From assembly GCA_020847355.1 (NCBI GenBank), contig JADLCG010000055.1:1-35857 (forward strand): 35,857 nucleotides of DNA, read 5' to 3'. The DNA comes from Anaerolineales bacterium. GTDB taxonomy: Bacteria; Chloroflexota; Anaerolineae; Anaerolineales; Villigracilaceae. The notes beneath the pieces are model-generated. The model saw only the letters and a list, made by a program, of their open reading frames with translations, was not told the DNA's origin and searched no databases. Below are positions 10,351 to 29,331 of this stretch, one piece after another. The first letter of the stretch is position 1; each line of letters starts with the position of its first letter. A program made the translations under genes and the position numbers.

Positions 10351-12660
10351 CTATTCCGACTTTTCTTCGTCTGCGTTATCGTCTTCCTCGCTCCGCGAGA
10401 GGTCAACAGTTGCGGCGCGCTTTTGCGCTAGCGCCCCTCTGACGACAAAGGCAATGATCGCCAAAATAATTACGCCGGAAGCAATGAGAAGCGGCATGAG
10501 CCAATCTGGCGGAGCGGTATTCAAAGCCGGGTTCGTTCCAGCCGGAAGCGGCGTAGTGACCACCGCCTCAGCGTCTGGCACAACATCGCCAACTGTGGAA
10601 AAGATTGCCTGATCGTCGCCTACGGCAACCTGCTTACCGTTCGTAATTGCAAACACGCCGGAGACCTGCGCGTTTATTTCGCTGACGAGTAAAGCGTCGC
10701 CAGAAAGCGCCAATCCATTCGCATCATTTCCGGAGAGGAGCAAGATCGTCTTGTCAATATTGAACGGCGAATGGAACAATTCAAGGTAGCCAACGCTGAC
10801 GCCCTGAGGGATGCGATACACAATTTGCAGTTGACGCTCGCTGGCGGTATCTGTAGCAAAATCAAAAGGCGCCGGCAGATTTTCGTTAATCTCATTCAGG
10901 ATGGGAAGCGTGCTCGCCTTGCCGATCATAATCATGGAATATTTCTCGCGGATTTCCGGCGAAACGTCATCGGCGAAAACCGTCCGCATTCCAGAAATGA
11001 TTGGGTTGGCAACTCTACCCAGTTCGTAAGCTAATTTACCGGCGATGCCCCAACCCGTTGTATCGGTCTTTGAAAGCACAAAAGCCAAATCGCCAAGGTC
11101 GCTTTGCGTTACGAAAAGTCCCGGGTAATTTTTCAAATCCATTGCGGAGTATTGAAATGCGCCAAGCGCATTCGCTTCGGGCAAATGCAGATTCGATTGA
11201 TCTGAGATGATCACCCATGGGTCGGAAAGTCCGGATTCGTCGCAAGAGGTGTCGGCGGAAAGTTGCCCGCTAATCGTCAGGCGATTTTCTCCATAGCGCA
11301 AAATGCCAAAAGGAATTTTGATGCGCACCGCTGTTAATTCTTCAGAGGCTTTATCCAAAGCTGTGCTATTGATCACCTGCCCATTCAATTCAATATTCAA
11401 GGAAGACAGCCCGTTATCTACCAGCGCAGAATGGTAATAGAGCAATTCAAAATAGCCGTCTCTAGTGAAAAGCTGTTGCTTAGAGACCATAAACGTGTAA
11501 TCTGCGGTTGAACGCCCGATGCCGCTAAGAGTCTCGGTCAGGTAGCCCAAGCTTTGGAAGGTGAAATTTTCAACGAAAGGAATGCTATCCATCAACGGCT
11601 GAACGTCTTTGACGTACGCGAGCGTCGGGTCTTGATAGATGAAAATTTTTCCAGAGCTAACCGCTTGAGAAGCCTTTTGAACCGCCGCCTCATCTTTTCC
11701 GCTCACTAACAGGATAGACTTTGCAGTATTCCACGGCGAAATTGCCAATTGAATCACGCCGTCTGTTGCAGAAGCCGGCGGAAGGTTCGGGAAATTGCCA
11801 GCCTCAACTTTTAGCGGTAGAGTGACGACATTCGACAAGAGCGGCAGTTTCTCTAGCGCGCCGACAAAAATAAAATTGCTCGTCGCCAGATCGTCATTCG
11901 TGACTCTGCTGGAGTTGATCAGCGAAAAATCAGCGGTACTGCCGACCATAGAACCAAAGCCAGCCATAATATTCAAGGCGGCTTGAAGTTCGCCGGCAGT
12001 TGGAGCGTCTGGCGTAACCACGAGAGTCCGTTCTGGCACAAGCGCGTTGGCTTGATAAAACGGCGCAGGCAAGCGCGATAAGTTCAAATCTGGCGGCGTG
12101 ACGCCATAAACCAAATTGAGGATCGAGGTGTCTTTGATGGTCACAACGGCGCGCACGTCATATTGACAGCTGAATTGAGCGTCTAAAGCGATTTTCAAAA
12201 CGTGGCGTCCGTCGCTGGTACTCGGCGTCAGCGCTTCGGGCGGGATTTGAAAACGAGCGGAATTGCTCCCAGTACTGCCCAGCGGGATTGTGCCAATAAT
12301 TTGATTATTAAAAGACACAACCAGCGAGCCGCCATAGGGGTTGCCCGCGCTAGCCAATTGCGCCAAGCCAGAACCAGTTAATAAAACGTCATAATCAATT
12401 TGAACATCGCCGCCAGCGGCTAATTTCCAGTTTGGGGGAATGCTAAAGAGTAAATGCGTCACGTCAAACGGGCTGTTTAATTCCGCTGGACGGAAACCTA
12501 ATTGCGCGAAGTTAAGCGAAACATTGTCGCTTGCGCCAACCTGCGTTGGCGCATTAATCTCCGCATAAAAGGTATCGCTCTTTGGCGCTTTCGCCGAAAC
12601 CTGAACAAAGTTACTCAAAATCAGAATCGGCAGAAAAATAAATGCGAGTATTTTTTTCAC
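10351..12660 (-). CDS. BcsB-like (cellulose synthase co-polymerase-like) extracytoplasmic protein with C-terminal membrane anchor
   Basis: Signal peptide from GTG 12660 (RBS GAGGTG). Two repeated units ('LNFAQLGF...FSIPPNW' and 'FTFQSLGY...'), each with a conserved Cys and followed by 'LSRLPAPF' or 'LKNYPGLF' and an 'SPWN/SPFN..K.ILL.SG.D' segment. C-terminal TM helix. This is the BcsB two-repeat architecture. Confidence 0.75.
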   Translation of the reverse strand: MKKILAFIFLPILILSNFVQVSAKAPKSDTFYAEINAPTQVGASDNVSLNFAQLGFRPAELNSPFDVTHLLFSIPPNWKLAAGGDVQIDYDVLLTGSGLAQLASAGNPYGGSLVVSFNNQIIGTIPLGSTGSNSARFQIPPEALTPSTSDGRHVLKIALDAQFSCQYDVRAVVTIKDTSILNLVYGVTPPDLNLSRLPAPFYQANALVPERTLVVTPDAPTAGELQAALNIMAGFGSMVGSTADFSLINSSRVTNDDLATSNFIFVGALEKLPLLSNVVTLPLKVEAGNFPNLPPASATDGVIQLAISPWNTAKSILLVSGKDEAAVQKASQAVSSGKIFIYQDPTLAYVKDVQPLMDSIPFVENFTFQSLGYLTETLSGIGRSTADYTFMVSKQQLFTRDGYFELLYYHSALVDNGLSSLNIELNGQVINSTALDKASEELTAVRIKIPFGILRYGENRLTISGQLSADTSCDESGLSDPWVIISDQSNLHLPEANALGAFQYSAMDLKNYPGLFVTQSDLGDLAFVLSKTDTTGWGIAGKLAYELGRVANPIISGMRTVFADDVSPEIREKYSMIMIGKASTLPILNEINENLPAPFDFATDTASERQLQIVYRIPQGVSVGYLELFHSPFNIDKTILLLSGNDANGLALSGDALLVSEINAQVSGVFAITNGKQVAVGDDQAIFSTVGDVVPDAEAVVTTPLPAGTNPALNTAPPDWLMPLLIASGVIILAIIAFVVRGALAQKRAATVDLSRSEEDDNADEEKSE

Positions 12661-12718
12661 GTTAAACACCTCAAATTCCTGAGTTATATCGAGAATCACT
12701 TAATAATAAAAAGTCTAA

Positions 12719-13831
12719 TTACCCAAAAGGTCGAACTTTATATAGGTTGATCTTAACGTCGGATTGCATCGAAATTTCCAGAGCCTGCTCAGCCTGATTG
12801 ACCAAAACCTGAAAGGACTCGCCGCCTTGATGATCGGCAAAGCCAATACGCGGATCGAGTTCAATATCAAATTCTCCGTCCGTATCCAAGGAAAAGCGCT
12901 GGGCTAAGATTTCTTGAATCCGCGACATTCTTTGCATAGCGGAATGTCCGTCCGTGGTGGGCAGAAGGACGCTAAACTTAAGTTGAGACCAGCGCCCTAC
13001 AATATCATTGCCGCGCAATTGATACTTCAGCGTGCTGGTCACTTTCTGCATGATCATATTCTTATACGCTTGCGGCAAAGAATCGTAAAATTCCTGAATG
13101 CCATTCAGATAAATGATGCCAATTGTGCGCACGTCATTCGGCTGATTGGCAATTTCTTGACGCACCAATCTTTCAAAATATGTTTTGGTATAAGCCAACG
13201 ATTCCGAATCGATCATCTTTCTTTGACCTAAGCTACCCAGCGAGCTAGATAATTGATCGCGGAAGATGGCGATGCCAACGCCAAGCCCCAAGCCGACGAT
13301 CAAAGCCAAACCGGCATTTTGCAACGGCTGAGGTTGGTACGGCTCTTCTGGCACAACGGCTTTATCCAGAAAGTCAATATCATAGATAACGTATAGCTTA
13401 CGCACAAAATCAATCGCATATTGACCAATGCCATTTGCCAACATCGCCGCCACTTCCGGGTCTGGACCTTTAACGCTAAATCGAATAATGTTCGCGTCCG
13501 GCAAAACGGTTACAGAGGTATCGTAAGCGCTAAACTTTTTCGGGTCCGCCGCAAGCAGTTGAATCGTACCGTTAATTACGTCGCGGCTGTTCAAAATTTC
13601 AGCGTAGGTCGAGATGATCGAACGCTTATCCAAAGCCTCAAGGCTATTGATTAGATCGCGGCTCTCGGTACTTTGTACGTTCGGGCTAACAATAAAACGC
13701 GCAACCGCCTCATACATAGGAGTTACAAAATAGTACGAATTGATCAAAGAGAGATTCAGCGCCAGCAAAGCTGAAATTGCGATAATCCACCAGCTACGCT
13801 GAAGAATACGAAAATAAAAACGAAGTTCCAT
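12719..13831 (-). CDS. Wzz/CpsC-type polysaccharide co-polymerase fused to a C-terminal degenerate GGDEF domain with RxxD I-site
   Basis: N-terminal 'RILQRSWWII..TM..TPMYEA' and the Pro-rich pre-TM2 motif 'DKAVVPEEPYQP..N..LALIVGLGLGVG' mark a PCP. A GGDEF-like region follows: 'IDSESLAYTKTYF', 'RGND-IVGRW-SQLKF-SVLLP', 'RIGFA', 'LVNQAEQAL'. Confidence 0.85.
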   Translation of the reverse strand: MELRFYFRILQRSWWIIAISALLALNLSLINSYYFVTPMYEAVARFIVSPNVQSTESRDLINSLEALDKRSIISTYAEILNSRDVINGTIQLLAADPKKFSAYDTSVTVLPDANIIRFSVKGPDPEVAAMLANGIGQYAIDFVRKLYVIYDIDFLDKAVVPEEPYQPQPLQNAGLALIVGLGLGVGIAIFRDQLSSSLGSLGQRKMIDSESLAYTKTYFERLVRQEIANQPNDVRTIGIIYLNGIQEFYDSLPQAYKNMIMQKVTSTLKYQLRGNDIVGRWSQLKFSVLLPTTDGHSAMQRMSRIQEILAQRFSLDTDGEFDIELDPRIGFADHQGGESFQVLVNQAEQALEISMQSDVKINLYKVRPFG

Positions 13832-13941: not shown

Positions 13942-15144
13942 ATGGAAACTGTCTCGCTTATTGTTGCGCTCTTGTTTTGGGGGTCTAGCGGCATTATTCT
14001 TTATGTATATCTTGGCTATCCAATCTTCATCGCGCTTCTTGCCAAGCTTCGCCCGCAAGCCGAAGCTTTTCCCGCATATTTACCAACAGTGACGTTATTG
14101 ATCGCCGCCTACAACGAAGAAACGGTAGTTGAATCCAAAATCAAGAATTCGCTCGCTATTGATTATCCACGCGAAAAATTTCAGATTCTCTTCGTCTCTG
14201 ACGGGTCTTCAGATGCCACGCCGCAGATCATTAAACGCTTTGAGAATCAAGGCGTTGAATTGTTGCATGAAGCGCAACGCAACGGGAAAATGGCGGCAAT
14301 TAACCGCGCCATGCCCAGCGTGCGCGGGGAAATCATCGTTTTCTCAGACGCCAATAATTATTATCAGCCGGATACAATCAAAAAGTTGGCGGCGCCTTTT
14401 CAAGATCCAAAAATCGGAGCGGTCAGCGGCGCAAAACTTATCGCGGATGGAGACGGCAGTCTCGGCGCATCCGAAGGCTTGTACTGGAAGTATGAGTCTT
14501 ACATCAAAAAGCAAGAAAGCCGTTTGGGTAGTTGCACCAGCGTGGCTGGGGAAATTTTCGCGCTGAGGAAAACGGCATATCTCAAACCGCCGGATAATAT
14601 TATCAACGATGATTTCTATCTGGGGATGCAAGTCATCCGCCAAGGATTGCGTTTGGTATATATTCCCGAAGCAAAATCCATAGAAAGAGTTTCGTTAACC
14701 GCGCAAGATGAAATTAAGCGCCGAATGCGGATCAACGCCGGGCGCTATCAGATTATCGCTAATGCCGAAAAAATCCTGCCTAAAAATCAACCGCTTTTAA
14801 TTTGGCAAATTATCTCGCATAAATTCCTGCGCCCCTTAGTCCCGTTTGGGATGATCTTAGCTTTGCTGGCGAATATCCTTGCGGTCGTTATTCCGTCTAC
14901 TAAAAACAATTTCTTTCTATTATCTAACCCCTTTGGCGAAATCATTTTAGGCTTACAAATTCTTTTTTATGGCTTAGCCTTTATTGGAACAGCCTTTCCT
15001 AAACTTGGCGAAAAATCTAAGATTATCAGGTTGCTCTATTTACCCGCCTTCCTGACAAACAGCAACCTAGCCGCGCTGAGGGGCTTCTTCCAATATCTAC
15101 GCGGACAACAATCCCATTTATGGGAACGCATTGAAAGGCGCTAA
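13942..15144 (+). CDS. GT2 glycosyltransferase, CESA-like (membrane-bound)
   Basis: N-terminal TM, 'IAAYNEE', 'SDGSSD', 'GKMAAIN', 'FSDAN', 'EGLYWKYE', 'NDDF', 'RRMRINAG' in place of QxxRW, 'SHKFLR' and C-terminal TMs. Confidence 0.92.
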   Translation: METVSLIVALLFWGSSGIILYVYLGYPIFIALLAKLRPQAEAFPAYLPTVTLLIAAYNEETVVESKIKNSLAIDYPREKFQILFVSDGSSDATPQIIKRFENQGVELLHEAQRNGKMAAINRAMPSVRGEIIVFSDANNYYQPDTIKKLAAPFQDPKIGAVSGAKLIADGDGSLGASEGLYWKYESYIKKQESRLGSCTSVAGEIFALRKTAYLKPPDNIINDDFYLGMQVIRQGLRLVYIPEAKSIERVSLTAQDEIKRRMRINAGRYQIIANAEKILPKNQPLLIWQIISHKFLRPLVPFGMILALLANILAVVIPSTKNNFFLLSNPFGEIILGLQILFYGLAFIGTAFPKLGEKSKIIRLLYLPAFLTNSNLAALRGFFQYLRGQQSHLWERIERR

Positions 15145-15165
15145 AATTCCAGCCGACCTTTTCTC

Positions 15166-16317
15166 ATGGTATCCGATTTTGACGCTTTTCCAAAAGTATT
15201 ACTGGTTGATTTATCCCTGAAATATGGCGGGTCTACTTCGCGCGCGCTTTCTTTAATCCAAAATTCCCCGCGTGGCAAGATAGCGCTGGCTGGGCTAAAA
15301 AACGGAGCAATTACGCAAGAAGCGCTCAAACTCAATTTGCCGGTTCACATCGTGGGCAAGAACAAGCTAGATCCGCGCATTCTATTCAATCTAATCAAAC
15401 TCATTCGTCAAAATGGCTACCAAGCCCTCGATACGCAAAACATTCAATCGAAATTTTGGGGCAGTCTCGCCGCCTGCTTGACCAAGACGAGTCTGATCTC
15501 GACGATCAATAGTTGGTACGCAAACGAACATGGGCAAGCCTCCACCAAAGGCAAAATTTACACTGCGCTCGAGCTTTTGACCAATTTGAATTTGGATTTA
15601 TACATTACCGTATCCGAAAAAGATCGCAAAGCTTTGCTAAATGCCAAGATTGACGAAAAGCGCATTCGCCTGATTTATAATGCCGTAGATATCACGCCCG
15701 CCGCCATCTTCGGGGAGGCTGGGTGGCTAAAAGAAAAATTCAGCCTACCGACAGATTCAATAGTTTGCACAGCCGTAGGTCGGCTTGTTCCAGTTAAGGG
15801 GTATGATATCTTGATCGAAGCCATGCGGCAGGTTGCGCCAAAAATCCCTAATCTAGTTTGTTTATTGGTTGGGGCTGGCGAATGTCAGGAAGCGCTAGCA
15901 ACGCAAATCAAAGAAGCTAAACTCGAAACGCGCGTCTATTTAGCGGGTTATCAAGATCGAAACACGGCGCTCGCGATTCTGAAAGCTAGTTCTATCTTCG
16001 CCATGCCTTCCAGATATGAAGGCACGCCCATCGCGCTATTGGAAGCGGCGGCGCTCGGACTGCCCATCCTCGCCTCTGCCAGCGGCGGCATACCGGAACT
16101 GGTTACAGACGGCGAACACGCGCTACTGATTCCGCCCAACGACCCAGCCGCGCTCGCGGATGGTTTGCTCAAACTCTGCACAGACGCTCAATTTGCAAAG
16201 GCGCTTGGAAAAAACGCGCAAGCCCGCATACGCTCTCAATTCAACCTCAAAGCGCAAGTCGAAGCGACTTGGAACGCTTACCAAACTGCTTATCAGTATC
16301 ATTATCATATAGATTAA
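15166..16317 (+). CDS. GT4 glycosyltransferase
   Basis: 'VGRLVPVKGYD' and 'PSRYEGTPIALLEAAALGLP...GGIPELV' (EX7E). Confidence 0.93.
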   Translation: MVSDFDAFPKVLLVDLSLKYGGSTSRALSLIQNSPRGKIALAGLKNGAITQEALKLNLPVHIVGKNKLDPRILFNLIKLIRQNGYQALDTQNIQSKFWGSLAACLTKTSLISTINSWYANEHGQASTKGKIYTALELLTNLNLDLYITVSEKDRKALLNAKIDEKRIRLIYNAVDITPAAIFGEAGWLKEKFSLPTDSIVCTAVGRLVPVKGYDILIEAMRQVAPKIPNLVCLLVGAGECQEALATQIKEAKLETRVYLAGYQDRNTALAILKASSIFAMPSRYEGTPIALLEAAALGLPILASASGGIPELVTDGEHALLIPPNDPAALADGLLKLCTDAQFAKALGKNAQARIRSQFNLKAQVEATWNAYQTAYQYHYHID

Positions 16318-16331
16318 GGAAAAGAACATTT

Positions 16332-17369
16332 ATGGGAAGCGTAAAACTTTCGCAAAACTCGCCCCTAAAGCGCTTTATCAATTTTGCCTATCGTAAAGGC
16401 TGGTTCAATGTTGGCAGAGCGCTGTTTGCTAAATCCCTGACTGTGATCAACTATCATCGCATTAACGATCCGCATCAAGCTGGGTTTGATTCATTTTTAC
16501 CGAACGTCAGCGCGCACCCAAAAGATTTTGACTTGCAAATGGAATATCTGGCGCGTTGGTTTAATGTCGTCTCGCTCACAGACGTAACGAATTGGCTCCG
16601 CAACGGAAAAGACTTGCCGCCTTACGCCGCGCTCATCACGTTTGACGACGGCTATCTTGATAATTACACCGAGGCGTATCCCATTCTGCGCCGCCATAAC
16701 TTCCCTGCCGTAATTTTTCTAACGCATGGGCACATCGGCACAGACGCGCCATTTTATTGGGATCTGGCGGCTTATTGTTTTTATCACACGCAGACAGATG
16801 CAGTTCTCTTCCCTGATAACACAAATGAAAAATGGGCAAACGAAGCTCAAAGAAAGCTGATCAGCCAACGGTGGATTGAGGCGCTGAAAATCCTCCCGCA
16901 TACCGAAAAACTAAAATGGGTCGAAAAACTTCCAGAGCGGCTCAATGTATCCATCCCTCAAGGTTATTTCCAAAAATTGATGTTGAACTGGGATCAAGTG
17001 CGCGAGATGAGTCAAAATGGTATTGAGTTTGGCGGGCATACCTTGACGCACCCGATTCTGACGCGCGTTTCGCCGGAACAAGCCGAGAAAGAGATTCACG
17101 GCTCGAAGCTTGCAATTGAACGAGAGCTAGGGCAAGAAATTTCAGGCTTTGCTTATCCAAACGGCAGGCAAGCCGACGTGAATGCCGAGGTTGAGAAGCT
17201 CACGCAAAACGCCGGTTATCAAGCCGCCTTCACTTTGCAAAACGGACCGACTACGCTTCAAGAAGTAAGGCGGAATCCGTTTGCGATTCGCCGTATTTTT
17301 ATATCGCACCTGCATACGTTGCCGCGTTATGCTTTACTCACACACAGAATAAATCGTTATCGTAAGTGA
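16332..17369 (+). CDS. Polysaccharide deacetylase (CE4/NodB-like, with internal insertion)
   Basis: 'INYHRI', 'ITFDDGYLD', 'FGGHTLTHP' and 'FAYPNG'. Start placed at ATG 16332 after TAAGGA. Confidence 0.92.
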   Translation: MGSVKLSQNSPLKRFINFAYRKGWFNVGRALFAKSLTVINYHRINDPHQAGFDSFLPNVSAHPKDFDLQMEYLARWFNVVSLTDVTNWLRNGKDLPPYAALITFDDGYLDNYTEAYPILRRHNFPAVIFLTHGHIGTDAPFYWDLAAYCFYHTQTDAVLFPDNTNEKWANEAQRKLISQRWIEALKILPHTEKLKWVEKLPERLNVSIPQGYFQKLMLNWDQVREMSQNGIEFGGHTLTHPILTRVSPEQAEKEIHGSKLAIERELGQEISGFAYPNGRQADVNAEVEKLTQNAGYQAAFTLQNGPTTLQEVRRNPFAIRRIFISHLHTLPRYALLTHRINRYRK

Positions 17370-17380
17370 ACTCTAATGCC

Positions 17381-18619
17381 CTACAAGGTTTCATAAACGC
17401 CTGAAATTATTTCGGCTACTTTTTCCCAGCTAAATTTAGTGCGCGAAAGCAAGCGGGCATGTTCGCCCATCGCCTGGGCGAGTTTTGGATCTTGAAGCAA
17501 GGCGTTAATTTTCTGCGCCAAATCTTGCGGGTTTTGGGGCGCGGCTAAAAATCCGTTTTTGCCGTCCTCCACAGCTTCAGGCAAGCCGCCAATATTTGCG
17601 GCGACCACCGGCTTACCAAACGTATATGCTACCTGCAACGCCCCGCTTTGCGTACTGCTTCGATACGGATAAACCACAACGTCCGCAAGCGTCATAATCG
17701 GAGCGATCTCGGTAACGTCAATATAACGCGGGTCAAAAATTATCCGTTCGCTCAGTCCTAATTCTGTCACCCGCTCATAGAGGGCGTTCATGTCAATATA
17801 TTTCGTTGGGTATCCAACCACAAGCAATTTAGCGCCGCAAGTTTGAGGAAGCAAACCAAAGGCTTCAAGCAAATCTTCAATGCCTTTGCTCGGAGAGAGC
17901 AAGCCAAAGAACAAAATAACTTTATCCTGCTCGGTCAGCGCATATTTCTGGCGGAGATCCGCTTCAGCGCTTGGACTCTGCGGAAGTTGAAGAAGCCAGC
18001 CTTGATTGCCGTGCGGGATGAGATGCGTAGCCTTCACTGGAACTGCGGGAAAATGCGTAATAAATTTCTGACGGTTTTCTTCAGCGTGAAAAAATAGCGC
18101 GGAAAACTTGGCGTACATGGCTTCGTCAGAACCGAAAATGATCGTAGAAAGGACTTCATCTTTTCCCTCTCTGGCTTCAAATTCATGGCAAACCTGAGTT
18201 AGAACCAAATTATTTTTCTTCAAGCGCCTGATAAAGTAAGCTTCAAACTGAAATTGAATGCGGGAAAATTGCACAATCTCCGGTTTGACGCGCAATAAAT
18301 AAGCCGTCACTCGAAACCAAGTGAGGATCAGATAAACTCCGCGCAAGATTCGCAAACCCAAGCGCTTCACTCTCCGCCAAACAGATTTCAGCAATCCTTT
18401 TGAAGTTTCGCTATTTGACGAAGAGAAATTCTTCATCAAATAAAAATCTTTTTTCACCCGAAAATTATGCGGCAGGTTCGCCATTTCGTAATCCGAAGCG
18501 GTCAACAGAGTCACCTCGAAACCTGCATTTGCTAAAGCGGTGCAGAGTTGATAGGCATAATGAATCAACCCGCCAACGCTGTTCAATTCAATGACACAGA
18601 TATGTTTTTTATTTTTCAT
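17381..18619 (-). CDS. GT4 glycosyltransferase
   Basis: 'LFFGLLSPSKGIEDL' and 'YPYRSSTQSGALQVAYTFGKPVV...GGLPE'. Confidence 0.92.
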   Translation of the reverse strand: MKNKKHICVIELNSVGGLIHYAYQLCTALANAGFEVTLLTASDYEMANLPHNFRVKKDFYLMKNFSSSNSETSKGLLKSVWRRVKRLGLRILRGVYLILTWFRVTAYLLRVKPEIVQFSRIQFQFEAYFIRRLKKNNLVLTQVCHEFEAREGKDEVLSTIIFGSDEAMYAKFSALFFHAEENRQKFITHFPAVPVKATHLIPHGNQGWLLQLPQSPSAEADLRQKYALTEQDKVILFFGLLSPSKGIEDLLEAFGLLPQTCGAKLLVVGYPTKYIDMNALYERVTELGLSERIIFDPRYIDVTEIAPIMTLADVVVYPYRSSTQSGALQVAYTFGKPVVAANIGGLPEAVEDGKNGFLAAPQNPQDLAQKINALLQDPKLAQAMGEHARLLSRTKFSWEKVAEIISGVYETL

Positions 18620-19781: not shown

Positions 19782-19877
19782 AATTTATTCCTGATGACCA
19801 ATAATTATATTATCTTTTTTTGATTTCTTATTTACCAATTACATAAGGAAGCGTCTAAAGGAATGGGCTAAAGAGCC

Positions 19878-19956
19878 TTTCACCACAGAGAGCGCAGAGT
19901 CCACAGAGAGGCTTCAGAAGGGTTTCTCCGTGTTCTTTGTGCGCTCTGCGGTTAAA
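19878..19956. repeat. Imperfect palindromic extragenic element with internal 9-nt periodicity (REP-like)
   Basis: Arms TTTCACCACAGAGAGCGCAGAGTCCACAGAGAG and TTCTCCGTGTTCTTTGTGCGCTCTGCGGTTAAA match at 24 of 33 positions. The repeating unit is C(A/G)CAGAGNN. Confidence 0.75.
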
Positions 19957-19960
19957 TCTT

Positions 19961-21661: not shown

Positions 21662-23154
21662 GCCTGTACATTCTGTTTAGCGCCGCTCACCATGCGGATA
21701 AGGCGCAAGAGATTGTCGCGTTCAAGCCGCCACAAAACCGCGAGATAGCTGATAGCGCCAGCGGCAACCACGCTAATCAATTGAACGATCGGCGCGGCGT
21801 TCGCCGTAAGTTTTAACGCCAGCAATGCAAATGGAACCATCACCACGCCCGCCAAGAACGCCGGCTTTAGCTCTTTCAAAATATCAGCAATCTTGATTTG
21901 GACGTATTTTGTCGCCAGCGTTAGGCTCGTGGCTCTTCTAACTAGCACCGCAAATAAATGCCCCCAGGCGATGCCAATTAATCCGAAGTGTGAGCCAATC
22001 CAAATTGAAGGGACGATCACAATCACCGTCAGAACGGTTAGCCACAGCAGGATGTCCGGTCGTCCAATGGCTTTATAGACATCGCCAATGTGATAGCCAA
22101 CAGAATAAACCCAAGCGTAAATCGCCAGAACGCGCAAAACGGGGATCGCCTCCAGCCACTGATCGCCAAAAACCACGCGCACGATAGGATCGGCGGCAAG
22201 AAACAACCCCAAGGCGATTGGAACCGCAATTAGTTGAATGAGGCGAATCGCCGCCAAAACGCCGCGCCGCATTTCCGCAGGTTTATCCTGAATTGAGGAA
22301 AATGCGGGGAACGTAACGCTCCCCATCACCCACAAATTCCCGATCAGCAACATCTCCGGTAAACGATAAGCCAGCGTGTATATACTTAATTCAGCCATGC
22401 CAAAAACTCTACCGACAATGATGTAATCTATGTTGTCAATGATCACGCCTAAAAAATCGCTAACCGTCACAGACGAGCCGAACTTCATCAACGATTTAAT
22501 TAATGCAAGGTCCAAACTTAAGCGCGGGCGCCAAGCGACAACGATCCAAACTAAAATTACCGAAGTAACAGCGCCCAAGATTTGCCCAAAAACTAAAGCC
22601 CAAACGCCATAACCGGCATACGCCAAGCCGATCGAAGCGACGCCCTTGACAATCGTATTTCCCATGTCTGGGATAAACTTGCGCCGATAGTCAAGGTCTT
22701 TCATCAACAAAATCACATGGACTGCGCCGAGCGCATTGATCGCAAAAGAAGTTCCAAGCCAACGCAGAACCGGAATAATTCTAGGTTCGTGAAAGTAATC
22801 TGCAAAGAATGGCGCTACTGGAATCACGAGCGCGGACAAGGTGAACCCAATAATCAGGTTGACGGTAAAAACAATATTCGCCACTTCATTGACATTCTCG
22901 CGGCGTTGAATGAGCGCGAGCCCCAGCCCTAAATCTTTGACCAGCGAAAGATAGCTGATTGCCACAATCGCAATCGAGAGCAAGCCGAAGTCGTCTTTCG
23001 TGAGGATGCGCGCCAAAATAGCGGTGGTGACTAAAACCGCCCCTTTACCCAAGCCGTAAGTTAGGAAATTCCAAATAACGCCGCGCCCAGCTTTGCGGGT
23101 AACATGAGCGCCGGAAGTCGTCTCTTCAACGGCAATAATTGGATTATCGTTCAA
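21658..23154 (-). CDS. wzx: Wzx-type flippase (MOP superfamily, WzxC-like)
   Basis: 'ILARILTKDDFGL', 'DLGLGLALIQ', 'GYGVWALVFGQ', 'NIDYIIVGR', 'YTLAY' and many TMs. Likely start is TTG 23154 after GGGAGA; the ORF extends to 23211. Confidence 0.9.
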   Translation of the reverse strand: MNDNPIIAVEETTSGAHVTRKAGRGVIWNFLTYGLGKGAVLVTTAILARILTKDDFGLLSIAIVAISYLSLVKDLGLGLALIQRRENVNEVANIVFTVNLIIGFTLSALVIPVAPFFADYFHEPRIIPVLRWLGTSFAINALGAVHVILLMKDLDYRRKFIPDMGNTIVKGVASIGLAYAGYGVWALVFGQILGAVTSVILVWIVVAWRPRLSLDLALIKSLMKFGSSVTVSDFLGVIIDNIDYIIVGRVFGMAELSIYTLAYRLPEMLLIGNLWVMGSVTFPAFSSIQDKPAEMRRGVLAAIRLIQLIAVPIALGLFLAADPIVRVVFGDQWLEAIPVLRVLAIYAWVYSVGYHIGDVYKAIGRPDILLWLTVLTVIVIVPSIWIGSHFGLIGIAWGHLFAVLVRRATSLTLATKYVQIKIADILKELKPAFLAGVVMVPFALLALKLTANAAPIVQLISVVAAGAISYLAVLWRLERDNLLRLIRMVSGAKQNVQA

Positions 23155-24643
23155 GAGACGTCTCCCGAGATGAAAAACGGGAGAGACCTGTACCCGATTG
23201 AAGTTCATCAACCAATTGAATCAGCGTAATTCCCAAAGCGACTAAGATCCAAAAATAACGGATGTAAGCGTTGTGCAAAAAGACAGCGGCAATCATATAA
23301 GCGATAATTGAAACGCGAAGTGAATTGATCCACGGCAGTAAAGAGATATGCCGAGGCATCAAATGAACCGTCCGCGCCGCCCGCGCCAGCCCAGCCATAA
23401 GCGCTAACACCAATCCAAAAAACGAGACTGCGCCAAAGACTCCCGTCTCCGCCAACACTTGCGTATATAACGAGTGCGCGTCTCTTTCTTCCGAACGCAT
23501 CTCAAGCCCAATCTTCTGCGCATATTCCTGATAATTATTGCGAAAGTTCCCCGCCCCCACGCCCAACAATGGATGATCGGCAAACATCATCACGCCGGCA
23601 ATCACCTCGCTCGCCCGCCCACGAAACGAAGAATCCTCATACACGCTCACGCCGCCTTCAGAACTCGGCGCAAGCGATAATAAACTTTCAAAACGCTCAA
23701 GGTACGCCGGAGGGAGCAAGGGAATAAAAATCGTAGCCAGCCCCAAGATACCAATCGCCACCAGCGGATTAAGTTTCCGATCGAAAACAAAGAGCGTTAG
23801 GATCATACTGACGACAAACGCTAGATACCCGCCGCGGCTATAAGTATTCAACAACTCGAAGCCGATAATCCCAAACGCGGCAATTGCGTAAAGCTTGGTC
23901 AACATGCGCGGCTGATTGAAGATCTGGAAAGCGATCAGCGGCAAAATAGCCACCAAAACTTCAGCCCACATATTCGGGTCGCGTATTGGTCCGCCAATGC
24001 GATTCGTCGAAGAATTATCGCCCTCCACCACGCTTTGCGTTTTAATCCGCGCCATGCCGAAGAAATCTTGCGAATAATCTCCGGTGAAAATTTGATAAGC
24101 GCCGAACAAACATAACACAGTTGTAATGAAGACGATGATCCAAACCGCCTGTTTCCAAGTGGAAGTTTCTCGAATGGCGAACAAAATTGTATAAAGAATA
24201 AAAATATCCTTCGCCAAATCCTGAATCGCTTCCATCGTTCGATCTTTATCCGAAGCGACCGCATAAGAAGCCAGCATGGAAACAAAATAGAGGATCAAAA
24301 ACAACTCAACGACAAAGGTGCGCGTGCGGTTCTTCGGCAACTGCCCGGTATAATAATTCCGAACCATGATCGCCGCAAAGACCACCACCACCAAAGGCTT
24401 GATGATGCTTGGGTATCCGCGATTGGTCAGTTCCGCCGAGATGTTGATAAAGATCGTAATAATCAGGATGTTCGCGCCAATATTGGGCTTGATGATGATC
24501 ATCATCACCATCACAATCCCTAATACTCCCGCCAAGCCGTACAAGCCCACGCTGGTATCCGGGTCTGCCAAGGCGAAAGAAGCCGCGCCGACAAAAAACA
24601 AGCTGAATACTAAAAAGATCAAATCATTATTTTTGAGAGTCAT
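23144..24643 (-). CDS. O-antigen ligase/Wzy polymerase family membrane protein
   Basis: 'RIGGPIRDPN', 'TYSRGG', 'SSFRGR', 'HPLLGVGAGNF', 'AHSLYTQVLAETGVFG' and about 12 TMs. Confidence 0.88.
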   Translation of the reverse strand: MTLKNNDLIFLVFSLFFVGAASFALADPDTSVGLYGLAGVLGIVMVMMIIIKPNIGANILIITIFINISAELTNRGYPSIIKPLVVVVFAAIMVRNYYTGQLPKNRTRTFVVELFLILYFVSMLASYAVASDKDRTMEAIQDLAKDIFILYTILFAIRETSTWKQAVWIIVFITTVLCLFGAYQIFTGDYSQDFFGMARIKTQSVVEGDNSSTNRIGGPIRDPNMWAEVLVAILPLIAFQIFNQPRMLTKLYAIAAFGIIGFELLNTYSRGGYLAFVVSMILTLFVFDRKLNPLVAIGILGLATIFIPLLPPAYLERFESLLSLAPSSEGGVSVYEDSSFRGRASEVIAGVMMFADHPLLGVGAGNFRNNYQEYAQKIGLEMRSEERDAHSLYTQVLAETGVFGAVSFFGLVLALMAGLARAARTVHLMPRHISLLPWINSLRVSIIAYMIAAVFLHNAYIRYFWILVALGITLIQLVDELQSGTGLSRFSSRETSLER

Positions 24644-24664: not shown

Positions 24665-25762
24665 CTACGGAAGCGTAGTGGAAGGCTGATTCCAGTCAAT
24701 TACGACATACCAACTAGACGGAATATCGCGCAACATATCTTCAGACCAAATGCTTGCGTCCCATTTCGCAGTTTCGTTGCCTTCGCCGTAAGTTTTCGGA
24801 TGCCCGCTGTTATCAACAATAAAGCCGCCGTATTCCTGCATGTTCAACGCCCAGACGACGCAACCGCGCACTCCCGAACACGCTTCTATTATTTCAGCCT
24901 GCGTAACTTCCGGCTTGATCGCAATCCGCGCCCCTTCCGGAATGTCAAATTGATCCGTCCCATCTCCATCTGTTTTGGTGAAAGGCGGGATGGATGCGGG
25001 CCACCCATTCGCCGCGCAAACTTCCGCCATACAGGGATAATCGTAAGCAATTGTAACTGCGTGGCCGATATAGCCGCGTTCGATCTCACAGGGCCGCACA
25101 ATTCCGGCAAAGCTACCGATACCGGCGCCGCGCTGTGCAAAACCTTGCGGCGGTATACCTGAAGAGTAAATACTATATTTATACAGCCCGCCAACAAACC
25201 AATGCTCAGCGTCAATAATTCTGCCTTTGACCAAACCCCATTCTTCGCCAGTCTCAACATTCACTAGCGTCAACTCGCCATCTGTGCCGGGCGCGGGTTT
25301 GGCGTGAGCCGGAATTGGAGCTAAAACTACGCCGCCAGATTCTCCATACTCAATAACGGAGTCGTCAAGCACATTTCGGAATCTGCGCCCTTCCTGCAAC
25401 TGCACCGAAATTAACGGAGTAGCGTTATCAATAAAATAAATATTGGAGGAAAATTGCGAGGTGTCCGAGCCGATCCAGCTTGAGTTTTTGAAAAACGCGG
25501 ACATCATCTGATCGTTATCCGGATGCGCTTTGGCTTTTGACCAATCAATCGGCACATTCCAAATCGAATCGCTCGCGTACGGTCGGACGCATCCGAGGTC
25601 GGCATTGTTCCAATCGGCAGTTGCGGCAACCGCTAAAGATTCCGCCGTTTGCGTATTTTGCGCAGACATAGAAATACTCACGCCTTTAGCCGGCAAAAAA
25701 AAGCAGGCAGATACGCCAACCCCAAGAAGCAACAAGCCTAGCAGGCGTTTAAAAATATTCAT
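24665..25762 (-). CDS. Secreted/extracytoplasmic hypothetical protein
   Basis: N-terminal signal or anchor helix, then an aromatic- and Gly-rich domain ('RPYASDSIWNVPI', 'PGTDGEL', 'GIVRPCE..GYIGHA', 'IPEGAR', 'QEYGGFIVD'). Confidence 0.8.
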   Translation of the reverse strand: MNIFKRLLGLLLLGVGVSACFFLPAKGVSISMSAQNTQTAESLAVAATADWNNADLGCVRPYASDSIWNVPIDWSKAKAHPDNDQMMSAFFKNSSWIGSDTSQFSSNIYFIDNATPLISVQLQEGRRFRNVLDDSVIEYGESGGVVLAPIPAHAKPAPGTDGELTLVNVETGEEWGLVKGRIIDAEHWFVGGLYKYSIYSSGIPPQGFAQRGAGIGSFAGIVRPCEIERGYIGHAVTIAYDYPCMAEVCAANGWPASIPPFTKTDGDGTDQFDIPEGARIAIKPEVTQAEIIEACSGVRGCVVWALNMQEYGGFIVDNSGHPKTYGEGNETAKWDASIWSEDMLRDIPSSWYVVIDWNQPSTTLP

Positions 25763-25776: not shown

Positions 25777-26991
25777 CTAAGAGACCAACGCCAAGCCGAT
25801 GTTTCTAATTAGATAGCGGGCTTGTTTCAAACGCTCTTCAAACTGCGGCGCCCGTTTGATCAGGCGTTTAACCTCGACGAGCGAATTTTCGATAAAAAAC
25901 CTAGCCTTATTTTTTACCCAGCGAATCTTGTACATCTGCGTCGTATCCGTGGATAGACTGCTTTTATACGGAGCGTCTCCGGCTAGAAAATCGTACACGG
26001 CTCTGCCTTTGGAAGCATTGTGGACAATTGCGTAATAGTGCGAAACTAAACCGGGTCTATAAACATTTTTAGGCAGATACTTAAACCCGCTTTGATAAAA
26101 CAAAACTTGATTGCAATACACAAAGCAATATAAATATCCCAGGTTTCCCGATTCGTTATAAATTTGTAGTAGTTGAATCTCGCCGCTAGCAAAACGCGAA
26201 CGAATCAAGTCGTGATGAAACTGAAGCACATACGGATTGGAGAATGCGCCCGGGCGATTCAAATTATTCCATTCAGCTTGGTGCAAAGCGACCAAATTTT
26301 CAAACATCGCCAGCGCCTCTTCAGAAGTTTCAGCTTCGCGCACGAGAATACGCCCGCCATCTGCCTCATACTGTTTTACTGAGCGCCTAATCTGACTCCG
26401 TTTGTTTGAGCTTAACAAAGCGTAGAAATCCAAATTTACGGCGCGAACCTTCTCCAAATTTACCAAGAACGCGGTAGCCGCATCTATCTGAATAGAATAA
26501 ACGCCGAGCGTTTTTTCCGCATTGAGCAAATTGAAGTCTTGAGTAAATTTCAAAGAAACCCACGGGAAATCGAACTCGTCCCAAGCCAAATTACGCACAT
26601 ATTCAAGGGCTTGAGTCGCATCCGTCAGCATTGCCGGGTCGTATAAAATCGAATTGTATTCCGCGTAAATCTCGTCATATCTACGCACGGCAGTAGCGTT
26701 TAGCGCCAAAGTTTGCGAGGGTAAAAAGCCATACTTATTCTTCTTGCGCCGATTGATAAAAAATGCCAAGGCTGGGGTTTCATTTATAGAACCAACGATC
26801 AGCTCAAGTTGGAGGTCGCGCGGCAAGCTATTCAACCAAGTGGAAATCCAACCCCAGGAAGTGAAATAGCTATGCGCGCTTCTGGCGAGCAAATCCAGCC
26901 AAATTTTCTCCGCTTGTTCCGTTTCCACAAAAGGATCGTAAGTTCGGAAGGCAAGCCGGACTTCATCTGGCGAATTTTTACTGAGCGTCAT
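25777..26991 (-). CDS. CelD/BcsL-type GNAT acyltransferase
   Basis: 'W.DLL.RS.HSYFTSWGWISTW', 'LSSNKRSQIRRS', 'LHQAEW', 'FYQSG', 'RPGLVSH' and 'YDFLAGDAPYK'. Confidence 0.85.
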   Translation of the reverse strand: MTLSKNSPDEVRLAFRTYDPFVETEQAEKIWLDLLARSAHSYFTSWGWISTWLNSLPRDLQLELIVGSINETPALAFFINRRKKNKYGFLPSQTLALNATAVRRYDEIYAEYNSILYDPAMLTDATQALEYVRNLAWDEFDFPWVSLKFTQDFNLLNAEKTLGVYSIQIDAATAFLVNLEKVRAVNLDFYALLSSNKRSQIRRSVKQYEADGGRILVREAETSEEALAMFENLVALHQAEWNNLNRPGAFSNPYVLQFHHDLIRSRFASGEIQLLQIYNESGNLGYLYCFVYCNQVLFYQSGFKYLPKNVYRPGLVSHYYAIVHNASKGRAVYDFLAGDAPYKSSLSTDTTQMYKIRWVKNKARFFIENSLVEVKRLIKRAPQFEERLKQARYLIRNIGLALVS

Positions 26992-27024
26992 AACAATTTC
27001 TCTGCATTATCGGCAAAATGAATC

Positions 27025-27765
27025 TCACTCGGCAAGCGCCGGTTGTTCGGAACGGAGCAAATCTAATAGGATGAATAAGCAGACGAAGATATAGAAGAAC
27101 TCGTAATTACTTTCTTTGATTTCCTGCACAGCTTGAATAAACGGCACTTTAGCGTAGCTGTAACCGGCGGCAAATGCCAGCTTGGCGACTTTTGCAAATA
27201 GATAATTGAAAAGGAAAAACATGCCCAGCCCCCAATGAACAATTGGGATAAATCTTGAGCTGAATTTCCCAAACCGTGGAATAAAAACAGCCGCCAGCGG
27301 AATTAAAAAGACGAAGAAGCCCCAGAAAACGTCAAACTCGCTTTCAAATGGCATAACCATTCCGCCAAATTCAATGTTATGGATATTGATCTCGTCCTGC
27401 TCGTTGATCTCAGCTAAAGCTTCTGGGGTTTGTATTCCAAATATCCTTTGACCCCAGCTAATCTCCTCGCCCGCGCCAAAAAAGAAAAGGAGCGCCAACC
27501 CTAAATAGGCAAGTTGCTTCACCCAAAGGACCTTAGTAGTTTTACGCCGTTTCATTACATAGTAAAAAGCGTAAAACATCAAAACCGAAGCGATAAATAA
27601 AGAGAGCGCGCCGAGGTTTTCAAAATAACCGTCCTCGTGATAAAGCGAGGGCGCTAAACCGGAAAGTTTCAAGGTCAGATAGGTCGCTACAATATACACA
27701 AACACAGTTACATACAAAGTCGGTTTATAAAAAATATTAATTTTATTCACAAGAACCTCATTCAA
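27025..27765 (-). CDS. Conserved hypothetical membrane protein ('GEEISWGQR' type)
   Basis: About 6 TMs with motifs 'EDGYFEN', 'GEEISWGQRIFG', 'NEQDEINIHN' and 'EIKE'. Confidence 0.8.
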   Translation of the reverse strand: MNEVLVNKINIFYKPTLYVTVFVYIVATYLTLKLSGLAPSLYHEDGYFENLGALSLFIASVLMFYAFYYVMKRRKTTKVLWVKQLAYLGLALLFFFGAGEEISWGQRIFGIQTPEALAEINEQDEINIHNIEFGGMVMPFESEFDVFWGFFVFLIPLAAVFIPRFGKFSSRFIPIVHWGLGMFFLFNYLFAKVAKLAFAAGYSYAKVPFIQAVQEIKESNYEFFYIFVCLFILLDLLRSEQPALAE

Positions 27766-27784
27766 TTAGTTTAGGGGATCAAAA

Positions 27785-28459
27785 TCAATGCGCGCCGCGC
27801 TGTTGAAAAACAGCCATCACGGTTTTATATAAGATCACAATATCCAGCCAAATGCAGGCGTGATCAATGTAAGCGATATCCAGGCGCAAGCGGTCGTCAA
27901 ACTCCAACTGCGCCCGCCCGACGATTTGCCACAAGCCGGTCAAGCCGGGCGGCACATCCAGCCGCTCCGTATGCCAAAGTTTATAAGTTTCCGCTCCAAA
28001 AGAAGTTGGGCGGGGACCTACCAAACTCATTTGACCTTTTAAGATATTAATCAGTTGGGGAAGTTCATCCAAACTGGTCTTGCGTAAGAAGCCGCCAATT
28101 TTAGTGATGCGCGGATCATTGGTGATTTTGAAATCGGGCCATTGCAATTCGTTCAAATGCGCGTATTTCTGTTTTAACTCTTCCGCGTTCGGCACCATTG
28201 TGCGAAATTTGTAAATCACAAAGCGCTTCCCGCCTTTGCCAGTACGCAGTTGATGAAAAACCGCCGGAGCGCCGGGGGATGTAATTTCAATGATCGCCCA
28301 GACTACAACAATCACAGCCAGCCAAAGCGGGGCGCTGACGATAACCAAAATCAAATCCATTGCCCGTTTTAATTTTAAATAAGTTTGACCCGTAAAAATT
28401 CGCTTTTCCGGGTCAAAATCTGCCAACCAATCCGTAACATTGTTCTGATTAAGTTCCAT
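27785..28459 (-). CDS. Priming phosphoglycosyltransferase (bacterial sugar transferase, small monotopic type)
   Basis: 'KRAMDL', 'KFRTM', 'DPRITKIGGFLRKTSLDELPQL', 'GQMSLVGPRP' and 'PGLTGLWQ'. Confidence 0.95.
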   Translation of the reverse strand: MELNQNNVTDWLADFDPEKRIFTGQTYLKLKRAMDLILVIVSAPLWLAVIVVVWAIIEITSPGAPAVFHQLRTGKGGKRFVIYKFRTMVPNAEELKQKYAHLNELQWPDFKITNDPRITKIGGFLRKTSLDELPQLINILKGQMSLVGPRPTSFGAETYKLWHTERLDVPPGLTGLWQIVGRAQLEFDDRLRLDIAYIDHACIWLDIVILYKTVMAVFQQRGAH

Positions 28460-28464
28460 TTTCT

Positions 28465-29331
28465 TCAGGCGACGCTTTCATGCGACTGCGCCTCTTGGGC
28501 AAGCTGAATATTTTTCTGAGGAGTACGCGAGCGCTCGCGCGCCGTGTGTAACAGATCTTCAAAATTCAAGGCTTCATCCGGAAAAGCGGAAACGCCACAA
28601 ACGACCTTGAAGCTAGTCTTCTCCGCCAAAATTGAGCAAACTCTCTCAGCCAAGAGCATAGCTCGCTCCAAGGGAGTCTCTGGACAAAGAATCAAAAAAT
28701 GCCCTCTGCGATCCTGCATTAACACATCTGTTTGGCGCATAACTTCATTTAAAACCTGCCCCACCCGAGCGGCTGATAAACGCGCCATCATATCGCGTTG
28801 TAAAGTTTTCAAAACGTCTTTTGAAGACTGGTCATCATGCGGAGAAGTGACTACAACCACCAGCGAAAGCGGACGATGATAGCGCCGGCTACGGCTAAAT
28901 TCAGTTTTGATGATGTCTGAAGCTTCGTCCAATTTAATAGAATCGTGCGGGAAGGTGCCTTGCGCCAAAGCGTCCATCATCGATTCGGAATGATCTATCG
29001 CCACCGCCAATTGATACGCCAGCCAAACGCCAATTTCCAAAAGCACAAACTCCAAAAGCACAACCGCGACATCGTCAGTGGCGGTGTTTAAGCGATTGAC
29101 CATTTGAAAGAGCGCGAAGTAAACCGCGCCAAAGAAAATGCTCGGCACATAAATCGGCGCTTTATGCAGGGCCGGAATAAAAACCATAATTGGAATAATC
29201 AAGATGGCGAAAATATAGAAATAAGACGCAAAATTGATAATGGGACGGTCGGCGCTATCCAACTGCCCTAAAACCAAAATAAGCAACAAGTAAAACGATA
29301 CCAAGAATAATGATTTTCTGAAATTAGTCAT
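28465..29331 (-). CDS. 4-TM membrane protein with degenerate GGDEF domain and RxxD I-site (PelD-like c-di-GMP receptor candidate)
   Basis: Four hydrophobic helices, then 'EFSRSRRYHRPLSLVVV', 'RQTD-VLMQD-RRGHF-LILCPET', 'LAERV' and 'GVSAFPDEA...DLL..A'. Start placed at ATG 29331. Confidence 0.82.
   Translation of the reverse strand: MTNFRKSLFLVSFYLLLILVLGQLDSADRPIINFASYFYIFAILIIPIMVFIPALHKAPIYVPSIFFGAVYFALFQMVNRLNTATDDVAVVLLEFVLLEIGVWLAYQLAVAIDHSESMMDALAQGTFPHDSIKLDEASDIIKTEFSRSRRYHRPLSLVVVVTSPHDDQSSKDVLKTLQRDMMARLSAARVGQVLNEVMRQTDVLMQDRRGHFLILCPETPLERAMLLAERVCSILAEKTSFKVVCGVSAFPDEALNFEDLLHTARERSRTPQKNIQLAQEAQSHESVA

Follow-up and report, generated by a model that had tools for sequence, protein, structure and literature searches.

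A conserved Wzx/Wzy-type locus of Chloroflexota with a BcsB-like protein and two candidate c-di-GMP receptors

What are a BcsB-like protein and two degenerate GGDEF domains doing in a gene cluster that otherwise reads as a Wzx/Wzy pathway, and is this pathway under direct control of cyclic di-GMP (c-di-GMP)? The question is raised by positions 10351-29331 of contig C55 (JADLCG010000055.1; its whole length of 35,857 nt is called the window below) of a 2.74-Mb Anaerolineales genome that is 90.8% complete. According to our analysis the locus is a real, conserved and apparently undescribed variant of the Wzx/Wzy pathway, in which the BcsB-like protein very probably belongs to the same machine as the flippase and the likely polymerase, and in which c-di-GMP probably acts directly at one or both GGDEF domains. 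The genes that this reading concerns are as follows.

28465..29331, minus strand (ATG at 29331): 288-aa protein with four transmembrane (TM) helices and a degenerate GGDEF domain (4TM-GGDEF), likely the regulatory subunit of the next enzyme (GGDEF match weak; RxxD R199-D202, R230, RxxR R147-R150)
27785..28459, minus strand: small monotopic phosphoglycosyl transferase (PGT), 224 aa, the priming enzyme (Bac_transf PF02397 E 3e-60; family alignment)
23144..24643, minus strand: Wzy_C-family polytopic protein, likely polymerase, possibly ligase (PF04932 E 7e-21; ~13 TM; PDB 7tpg E 3e-9)
21658..23211, minus strand: Wzx flippase (PF13440 E 9e-79)
18609..19781, minus strand: family 4 glycosyltransferase (GT4; Pfam)
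17381..18619, minus strand: GT4 (Pfam)
15166..16317, plus strand: GT4 (Pfam)
13942..15144, plus strand: membrane-bound family 2 glycosyltransferase (GT2) without the TED and QxxRW motifs of processive synthases
12719..13831, minus strand: CpsC/Wzz-type co-polymerase (two TM) fused to a degenerate GGDEF domain (Wzz-GGDEF), 370 aa (PF02706 with PF00990, and PF13807; RxxD R273-D276, R304; no Walker A motif)
10351..12699, minus strand: BcsB-like protein (PF03170 E 2e-53; signal segment, BcsB ectodomain with two invariant Cys, Pro/Thr-rich stalk, C-terminal TM anchor)

We checked the gene calls of the window by Pfam (30 open reading frames (ORFs) of at least 200 aa). An earlier note, made from the sequence alone, had named a PGT, GT4s, a GT2, Wzx, Wzy_C, Wzz, BcsB, a GNAT, a deacetylase and two GGDEF proteins; each is found where it was placed, and the inventory missed four further genes in the span (an APH kinase, a methyltransferase-like ORF, a secreted 365-aa protein and a 5-TM protein of 246 aa). 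Of the parts of a Wzx/Wzy pathway, the window has a priming PGT, glycosyltransferases to build a repeat, a Wzx flippase and a co-polymerase, as well as a Wzy_C protein that is likely the polymerase. The absences that the note listed (BcsA, a bacterial tyrosine kinase or BY-kinase, an outer-membrane polysaccharide export protein (OPX) and nucleotide-sugar genes) hold for all 30 ORFs, and those of bcsA and BY-kinases extend to the rest of this 90.8% complete genome, in which CelA and BY-kinase were not matched over cut-off and Cellulose_synt and Poly_export were not found. The same profile search identified one Wzz, one BcsB and three LCP genes.

For comparison we took the best 80 of 242 matches in a species-genome collection, which gave 79 loci, 34 of them with full 10-kb flanks. 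A full-length Wzz-GGDEF is found in 32 of 61 relatives (G004 was dropped from the count, its match spanning only residues 3-190); BcsB is present in all 32, as compared to 6 of the 29 others, and 4TM-GGDEF in 29 of the 32. Across 301 genomes of the phylum, the close Wzz-GGDEF clade occurs in 15 (8 of the window's family and another 7 that fall outside the class, in f51); the close BcsB clade is present in every one of these 15, and 4TM-GGDEF in 12. These counts are descriptions rather than tests, because kin are not independent. Among the 34 full-flank loci, BcsB and Wzx are each found in 31, GT2 in 28 and Wzy in 27, and the order 4TM-GGDEF, PGT, GT4, Wzz-GGDEF, Wzy, Wzx, GT4s, GT2, BcsB recurs, also in f51. 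The cultured Levilinea saccharolytica KIBI-1 carries the portion with Wzz-GGDEF, Wzy, Wzx, GT2 and BcsB (locus L113). The modules that the earlier note had grouped thus co-occur in relatives, and we consider it very probable that they form one conserved Wzx/Wzy machine that includes BcsB. Judging by gene content, the modules of the cluster can separate, and the family is modular. The note had further described the core as bracketed by its two c-di-GMP receptor candidates; this arrangement turned out to be a rearrangement in the window's lineage, and bracketing as a design feature was rejected, as many relatives place both GGDEF genes at the head of one operon.

Several observations bear on the membership of BcsB in this machine. 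A profile of 21 BcsB-like proteins retrieves E. coli BcsB (E 6e-27) and Rhodobacter BcsB (E 1e-7), the PDB match ending at E. coli residue 699. The proteins share two invariant cysteines, all 21 have an unconserved Pro/Thr-rich stalk ahead of the anchor, and the window's copy has the BcsB-family ectodomain with a C-terminal anchor. In one locus (L221, genome G457) Wzx and BcsB lie in a single 1288-aa frame (L221:1348-5214), as also in G743, G741, G742 and G651; no stop codon interrupts the junction in these 5 of the 11 f127-family genomes, all of one genus. The fusion keeps a signal-like segment, so cleavage may occur. Cellulose_synt was not matched in 5/5 genomes tested, two of them single-contig. 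The GT2 was tried as the synthase partner of BcsB and rejected: TED and QxxRW are missing from all 18 aligned copies (two synthase-type controls have both), and no GT2 ortholog was found in five of five genomes that keep BcsB and Wzz-GGDEF (chosen because their cluster has no GT2). BcsB very probably belongs with the Wzx/Wzy core, because it is fused with Wzx in one family, the GT2 has no processive-synthase motifs and was not found in some genomes that keep BcsB, and Cellulose_synt was not matched; on this point, a BcsB-like protein without BcsA inside a Wzy-type machine, the earlier note is borne out.

Where the BcsB-like protein came from is suggested by other Chloroflexota, in which BcsB-like and 4TM-GGDEF genes stand side by side, several of them next to genes for 1150-1325-aa MshEN-GT2 proteins; elsewhere BcsB lies beside a GT2 of the cellulose-synthase family. 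RxxD is present in 6 of 7 4TM-GGDEFs of such synthase-type sister loci. In a quick tree (42 rows, long branches, midpoint root, no outgroup) synthase-linked BcsBs fall outside the clade of the window's BcsB (27 rows; SH-aLRT 100); the tree's WZY label includes L056, L173 and L184, whose fetched locus showed no Wzy. By this comparison BcsB-like and 4TM-GGDEF were likely recruited together from a synthase-type operon.

Several of the loci met on the way are of interest in themselves. Synthase-like GT2 proteins with 2-6 MshEN matches near BcsB-like genes (L192:8461-12438, L198:4630-8565, L201:3877-7767, L202:14984-18436, L168:5187-7412), most of them also with 4TM-GGDEF and unannotated proteins of 535-580 aa, are candidates for a separate c-di-GMP-controlled synthase system in Chloroflexota. 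At L199:9283-14747, BcsB-like and degenerate GGDEF genes directly precede Mur-ligase and CapC genes, which suggests the same module on a poly-gamma-glutamate capsule operon. Some BcsB-like proteins have extra domains, namely a GSDH propeller, SH3 repeats and a DUF11 insertion (L048:2381-6595, L206:6170-9934, L216:9341-12088). Ordinary-looking bcsAB, with BcsB beside a cellulose-synthase-family GT2 and GGDEF/SpoIIE signalling genes upstream, is found in other Chloroflexota families (L196:6244-13165, L197:6507-15092).

The co-polymerase is identified by PF02706 and PF13807 and by a predicted model (local confidence score pLDDT 82, predicted template modelling score (pTM) 0.48) that matches Wzc, KpsE and WzzE; residues 2-196 resemble Wzc (9r62; Z 13.9, root-mean-square deviation (rmsd) 2.7, 179 aligned) and residues 201-367 resemble PleD (Z 23.1, rmsd 2.0, 164 aligned). 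The TIGR01006 match (E 8e-19) is under cut-off. Where a class 2 polysaccharide co-polymerase (PCP-2) has its tyrosine kinase this protein has a GGDEF fold, and Walker A was not found in it. Its closest named homologs are Anaerolineales records (88-93% identical) and Ca. Villigracilis (64-71%). A search of representatives gave 449 proteins at E 1e-30, and 100 of the best 150 are full-length fusions. In related loci the gene commonly lies directly before the Wzy_C gene, and no BY-kinase match (E 1e-20) was found in 14 of the 32 Wzz-GGDEF genomes. Distant Wzz-GGDEFs also occur in Wzx/Wzy clusters with sulfotransferases and sugar oxidoreductases (L152, L153, L155, L160, L064-L065), in whose fetched stretches BcsB and 4TM-GGDEF are absent.

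The second GGDEF protein travels with the priming enzyme. In the predicted 4TM-GGDEF model (pLDDT 81) four helices are seen along with a fold of GGDEF type (Z 17.1, rmsd 2.4, 138 aligned); for the 4TM bundle alone no fold-search match stood out, the bundle being barely probed by that search. Of 52 copies of the gene, 48 lie directly before PGT. G059 accounts for two of the four exceptions, a contig end cuts the third short, and the fourth (L135) is fused in frame to a PGT part that contains an internal stop. The pair stays together even where pieces of the cluster are spread over 120-170 kb (L174, L175). Of 120 long PGTs listed, 19 have an N-terminal 4TM-GGDEF (some named Anaerolineae or Aggregatilineales), and one such fusion lies between the Wzy and BcsB genes (L206). 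These fusions surfaced only from the PGT side; a search from the 4TM-GGDEF side for longer forms (525-2000 aa) gave none. In L041, L158 and L185 the pair is replaced by a large WbaP-type PGT with CoA_binding_3. 4TM-GGDEF was not matched in G032 (a single contig) and G163, a profile comparison with the large PGT (a single-sequence template) gave no similarity, and a complex prediction of 4TM-GGDEF, PGT and c-di-GMP scored 0.30 against a mark of 0.32 (controls not folded) and counts neither for nor against such a complex. From its gene linkage, 4TM-GGDEF is a specific partner of the priming PGT, and the linkage and fusions make it likely the regulatory subunit of that enzyme, acting by contact. 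The pairing persists where RxxD is lost: because distant copies keep the PGT linkage and mostly have no RxxD, the domain would also have a role that needs no I-site.

Do the two GGDEF domains bind c-di-GMP? As the earlier note had pointed out, and as both sequences confirm, RxxD stands exactly five residues ahead of a dead signature in each (RGND-IVGRW-SQLKF and RQTD-VLMQD-RRGHF). Each thus combines a GGDEF fold and a degenerate active site with RxxD and a third arginine 31 residues on, as in an I-site receptor; the I-site residues of PleD we take to be R359/D362/R390. An active diguanylate cyclase was considered for both and rejected, since SQLKF and RRGHF replace GG[DE]EF in the window and GG[DE]EF is found in 0 of 100 full-length Wzz-GGDEF representatives (50% identity), 80 of which have RxxD. 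In the Wzz-GGDEF alignment R273 and D276 are each kept in 91/92 sequences and R304 in 81/92, in the 4TM-GGDEF alignment R199, D202 and R230 are each kept in 51/52, and in both the signature that follows is scrambled; identity to the window's proteins is ~38-93% in the Wzz-GGDEF clade and 19-58% in the 4TM-GGDEF clade. Of 14 GGDEF matches in the genome, 12 lie outside the window and 7 of those are canonical GG[DE]EF domains; RxxD in one sequence is unsurprising, because 5 of these 7 have it. The signal in the alignments is that RxxD is kept while the active-site motif drifts. It extends to distant Wzz-GGDEFs (RxxD in 12 of 13). On our reading, predicted c-di-GMP sensing at the PGT would be confined to the window's clade and that at the co-polymerase would be wider. 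The genome further has three HD_5 (HD-GYP-type) matches.

Taken together, the lack of a kinase switch, two predicted-inactive GGDEF domains with RxxD and a BcsB without a synthase make it likely that c-di-GMP controls the assembly line directly, and direct control at one or both domains is what the conserved motifs lead us to consider probable. Small PGTs load a sugar-1-phosphate on undecaprenyl phosphate. In the scheme that we propose, the window's PGT would prime undecaprenyl phosphate in this way, with 4TM-GGDEF as its likely regulatory subunit, in the place that the TM bundle and cytoplasmic domain take in a large PGT. The three GT4s and the GT2 would then build the repeat, which the accessory enzymes, going by their families, may decorate. 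Wzx would flip it, and the Wzy_C protein would likely polymerise it with an oligomer of Wzz-GGDEF. The state of this oligomer may depend on c-di-GMP at the I-site, and not on a cycle of phosphorylation; of this, the fusion and the motif are observed, and the switch is our proposal. The membrane-anchored BcsB-like ectodomain could receive the chain and likely guide the polymer outside the single membrane, after which it would be released, or attached by one of the three LCP proteins encoded elsewhere in the genome. That c-di-GMP activates, rather than inhibits, is assumed by analogy with YdaK. As a whole, a Wzx/Wzy line in which two RxxD-bearing GGDEFs control priming and co-polymerase in place of a tyrosine kinase seems to us fairly probable from the genes at hand, a little less so than direct c-di-GMP control as such. 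That it amounts to a new class of Wzy machine, with a c-di-GMP-switched co-polymerase, a receptor-gated priming transferase (split or fused) and a BcsB fold in a flippase/polymerase pathway, grafted from a synthase operon in Chloroflexota, is a more tentative proposal, to which we give slightly under an even chance.

A number of observations weigh against this scheme. RxxD is common in GGDEF domains, and the aligned sequences are kin; R304 is kept in only 57 of 100 distant Wzz-GGDEFs, and RxxD in only 4 of 15 class-level 4TM-GGDEFs and 3 of 19 4TM-GGDEF-PGT fusions; P0373 is a fusion that keeps it, and L216 has a natural homolog with no I-site. A BY-kinase is encoded elsewhere in 18 of the 32 Wzz-GGDEF genomes, and one BY-kinase-like gene lies inside the cluster (L217), among 146 of 194 stretches with a Wzz-GGDEF-profile hit. 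Wzz without GGDEF, kinase-free, is found in f72, f81 and L221, f33 has Wzz-GGDEF without BcsB (in sulfotransferase clusters), and BcsB lies far from the cluster in f72. An EAL domain was not found in the search of the window's genome, and the Wzy_C family also holds ligases. An alternative reading is the same machine with GGDEF folds that have a structural part, in oligomerisation, as the cytoplasmic domain does in WbaP/EpsZ; the I-site would be a relic, and c-di-GMP would not gate the pathway. The cytoplasmic domain of large PGTs does mediate dimerisation (PMC12802240; this and the other papers are cited for the accessible part of their text), Wzz occurs without any GGDEF in otherwise similar clusters, and 11 of 15 class-level copies and 16 of 19 fusions have lost RxxD but still show the 4TM-GGDEF-PGT pairing. 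The same losses, however, tell that the fold does not need the I-site, and yet it is kept in 51/52 and 91/92 sequences beside a scrambled signature, in clades that have diverged as far as given above, and RxxD also in the distant Wzz-GGDEFs. We therefore regard a purely structural role as unlikely.

It is less likely still, and in our view improbable, that the glycan is not a free exopolysaccharide (EPS). The Wzy_C protein would then be a ligase or O-oligosaccharyltransferase that transfers the repeat to a protein of the surface or to an acceptor in the wall, with the BcsB-like protein as acceptor or chaperone. The best PDB match of the Wzy_C protein (7tpg) is a putative polymerase/ligase and its best NCBIfam match (TIGR03097, under cut-off) a putative O-glycosylation ligase, and the Pro/Thr-rich stalk and the three LCP genes would also fit; against this, the co-polymerase is a fixed part of the module, commonly directly before the Wzy_C gene, it is the only Wzz of the genome, and co-polymerases work with polymerases (PMC12220298). 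The PDB and NCBIfam matches do not tell polymerase from ligase; we consider the Wzy_C protein likely the polymerase, and less probably a ligase. Least probable of all, and very improbable in our judgement, is that the locus combines two pathways, one of Wzx/Wzy type and the other a synthase system like Yda/Pss, with the GT2 as synthase, BcsB as its partner and 4TM-GGDEF as its c-di-GMP receptor. In several loci the GT2 does adjoin BcsB, at times along with a deacetylase; PgaC/IcaA is the best NCBIfam hit of the GT2 (90 of 422 bits, far under cut-off), and the MshEN-GT2 loci of other Chloroflexota do have BcsB and 4TM-GGDEF. The missing synthase motifs (18/18) and the five GT2-less genomes speak against it, as do the separate BcsB clade of the quick midpoint-rooted tree and a synthase-like GT2 of 481-505 aa, which G009 and G032 have outside the cluster and for which no match was found in G264 or the window's own genome (G000); moreover, 4TM-GGDEF follows PGT rather than GT2, and BcsB fuses with Wzx. 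We thus keep to a single Wzx/Wzy machine with probable c-di-GMP control.

The remaining genes of the cluster are accessory. Its three blocks are a minus-strand block (29331-17381) of 4TM-GGDEF, PGT, 5-TM protein, GNAT, secreted protein, Wzy_C, Wzx, methyltransferase-like, APH kinase and two GT4 genes, a plus-strand block (13942-17369) of GT2, GT4 and deacetylase, and a minus-strand block (13831-10351) of Wzz-GGDEF and BcsB-like. The accessory genes are:

27025..27765, minus strand: 5-TM protein, 246 aa (no family over cut-off; hydropathy; matched in 1 of 20 loci)
25777..26991, minus strand: Acetyltransf_6 GNAT acyltransferase (PF13480 E 4e-21; matched in 2 of 20 loci)
24665..25762, minus strand: secreted or N-anchored 365-aa protein (no family over cut-off; Atlas neighbours without a named family; 3 of 79 loci)
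21008..21661, minus strand: methyltransferase-like ORF (sole match Anamorsin_N, weak, E 0.047; accompanies the APH gene)
19961..20995, minus strand: APH-family phosphotransferase, likely a glycan modifier (PF01636 E 2e-11; 23 of 79 loci)
16269..17369, plus strand: polysaccharide deacetylase (PF01522 E 2e-26; no TM or signal segment predicted; 40 of 79 loci)

With the deacetylase matched in 7 and the GNAT in 2 of 20 loci, both are accessory as far as gene content tells. Modifying genes vary among loci and include sulfotransferases, asparagine synthase, hydrolase-like genes and GNATs. In two loci (L211:8508-11978, L212:9536-12925) a Wzy_C domain ends proteins of 1130-1156 aa whose 700-aa unannotated, multi-TM N-terminal part has an internal repeat. 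Scans of the locus for promoters (20 vs 25.5) and terminators (33 vs 29.6) are at chance level, and no informative repeats were found in it. RNA-library contigs of four runs cover it evenly, intergenic parts included (30, 29, 24 and 16 of 30 bins), so they may be DNA and we do not infer expression. A tRNA-Arg(TCG) (10166-10240, minus strand) directly after the BcsB-like gene marks the cluster edge, and a lipoprotein-like 218-aa gene of no known family (29809-30465, plus strand) is divergent from the cluster head in many relatives. The window also holds a ~145-nt palindromic intergenic element (19846-19990; 28 blastn hits in the genome; folding z -2.5; REP- or MITE-like) and a stand-alone class III nucleotide cyclase-like ORF of 209 aa (527-1156, plus strand; weak match, E 4e-5).

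Post-translational control of Wzx/Wzy pathways is described in 2025 as incompletely understood, and c-di-GMP receptor subunits are placed with synthase pathways (PMC12802240); how the co-polymerase signals to Wzy is left open in a review of the same year (PMC12220298). If our scheme is true, the ligand-binding domain that replaces the kinase would turn the co-polymerase into a titratable switch and make this signalling directly testable, and a BcsB fold without a synthase, even fused with a flippase, would widen the roles of BcsB. According to one proposal, Anaerolineae give the flocs and granules of treatment plants their structure, the evidence for their exopolysaccharide so far being precursor genes (PMC9942424, whose accessible part mentions neither Wzy nor c-di-GMP). 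In our literature search no title or abstract opening describes the system or its parts, although operon-survey tables (e.g. PMC7112194) could contain such loci, and the accessible part of a cellulose review (PMC8892547) contains no "Chloroflex-". For the Anaerolineae of flocs and granules, the locus offers a candidate polymer and a control point.

The known systems nearest to the locus each share a part of it. Bacillus subtilis YdaJKLMN and Listeria PssABCDE/PssZ make synthase-dependent, c-di-GMP-activated EPS of monoderms. Our search control recovered a BcsB-family protein in B. subtilis, which is presumably YdaN, Listeria PssD being alike; the Atlas neighbours were Chloroflexota and Planctomycetota clusters, and YdaK/PssE and YdaN/PssD were not among the sequences returned. 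YdaK is a 4-TM degenerate GGDEF protein with RxxD (R202-D205) five residues before SDERI and RxxR (R157-R160), and needs its RxxD for EPS (PMC5422440; for the yda operon see also PMC13274460); the window's 4TM-GGDEF, compared by these published features only, has RxxD at R199-D202 and RxxR at R147-R150. The earlier note had not recognised the locus as a described system, which apparently stands for the whole, but not for the pairing of a BcsB-like protein with a 4TM degenerate GGDEF, known as YdaN/YdaK (PssD/PssE). Unlike Yda/Pss, the window has no processive synthase and no GH8 hydrolase; instead it has a PGT, GT4s, Wzx, Wzy_C and a co-polymerase, and its candidate receptor is linked to the PGT.

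Like the PCP-2 proteins (Wzc; CpsC/CapA with CpsD/CapB), the window's co-polymerase has two TM helices around a short CpsC-type ectodomain and is encoded beside Wzy and Wzx, but its cytoplasmic module is a degenerate GGDEF and no kinase was found in the genome, whereas a tyrosine kinase defines PCP-2 (PMC12220298). WbaP/WcaJ, and Myxococcus EpsZ with its activator EpsW, likewise combine a TM bundle, a cytoplasmic domain and a PGT, with priming controlled by protein contact (PMC12802240); in the window the cytoplasmic domain is a GGDEF fold, usually in a separate gene, and the proposed input is c-di-GMP rather than a phosphorylated receiver. With BcsAB the locus shares a full-length BcsB ectodomain with a TM anchor; it differs in having no BcsA in 5/5 genomes tested and a variable Pro/Thr-rich stalk ahead of the anchor, where BcsB has an amphipathic helix needed by BcsA (PMC8892547). 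Caulobacter holdfast HfsK is a c-di-GMP effector as well, and its pathway is likewise a lipid-linked one of flippase and polymerase that includes a GNAT and a deacetylase (PMC5362036); HfsK, however, is itself a polymer-modifying GNAT that its ligand inactivates, whereas the window's candidate receptors stand at priming and at the co-polymerase, with the GNAT as an accessory.

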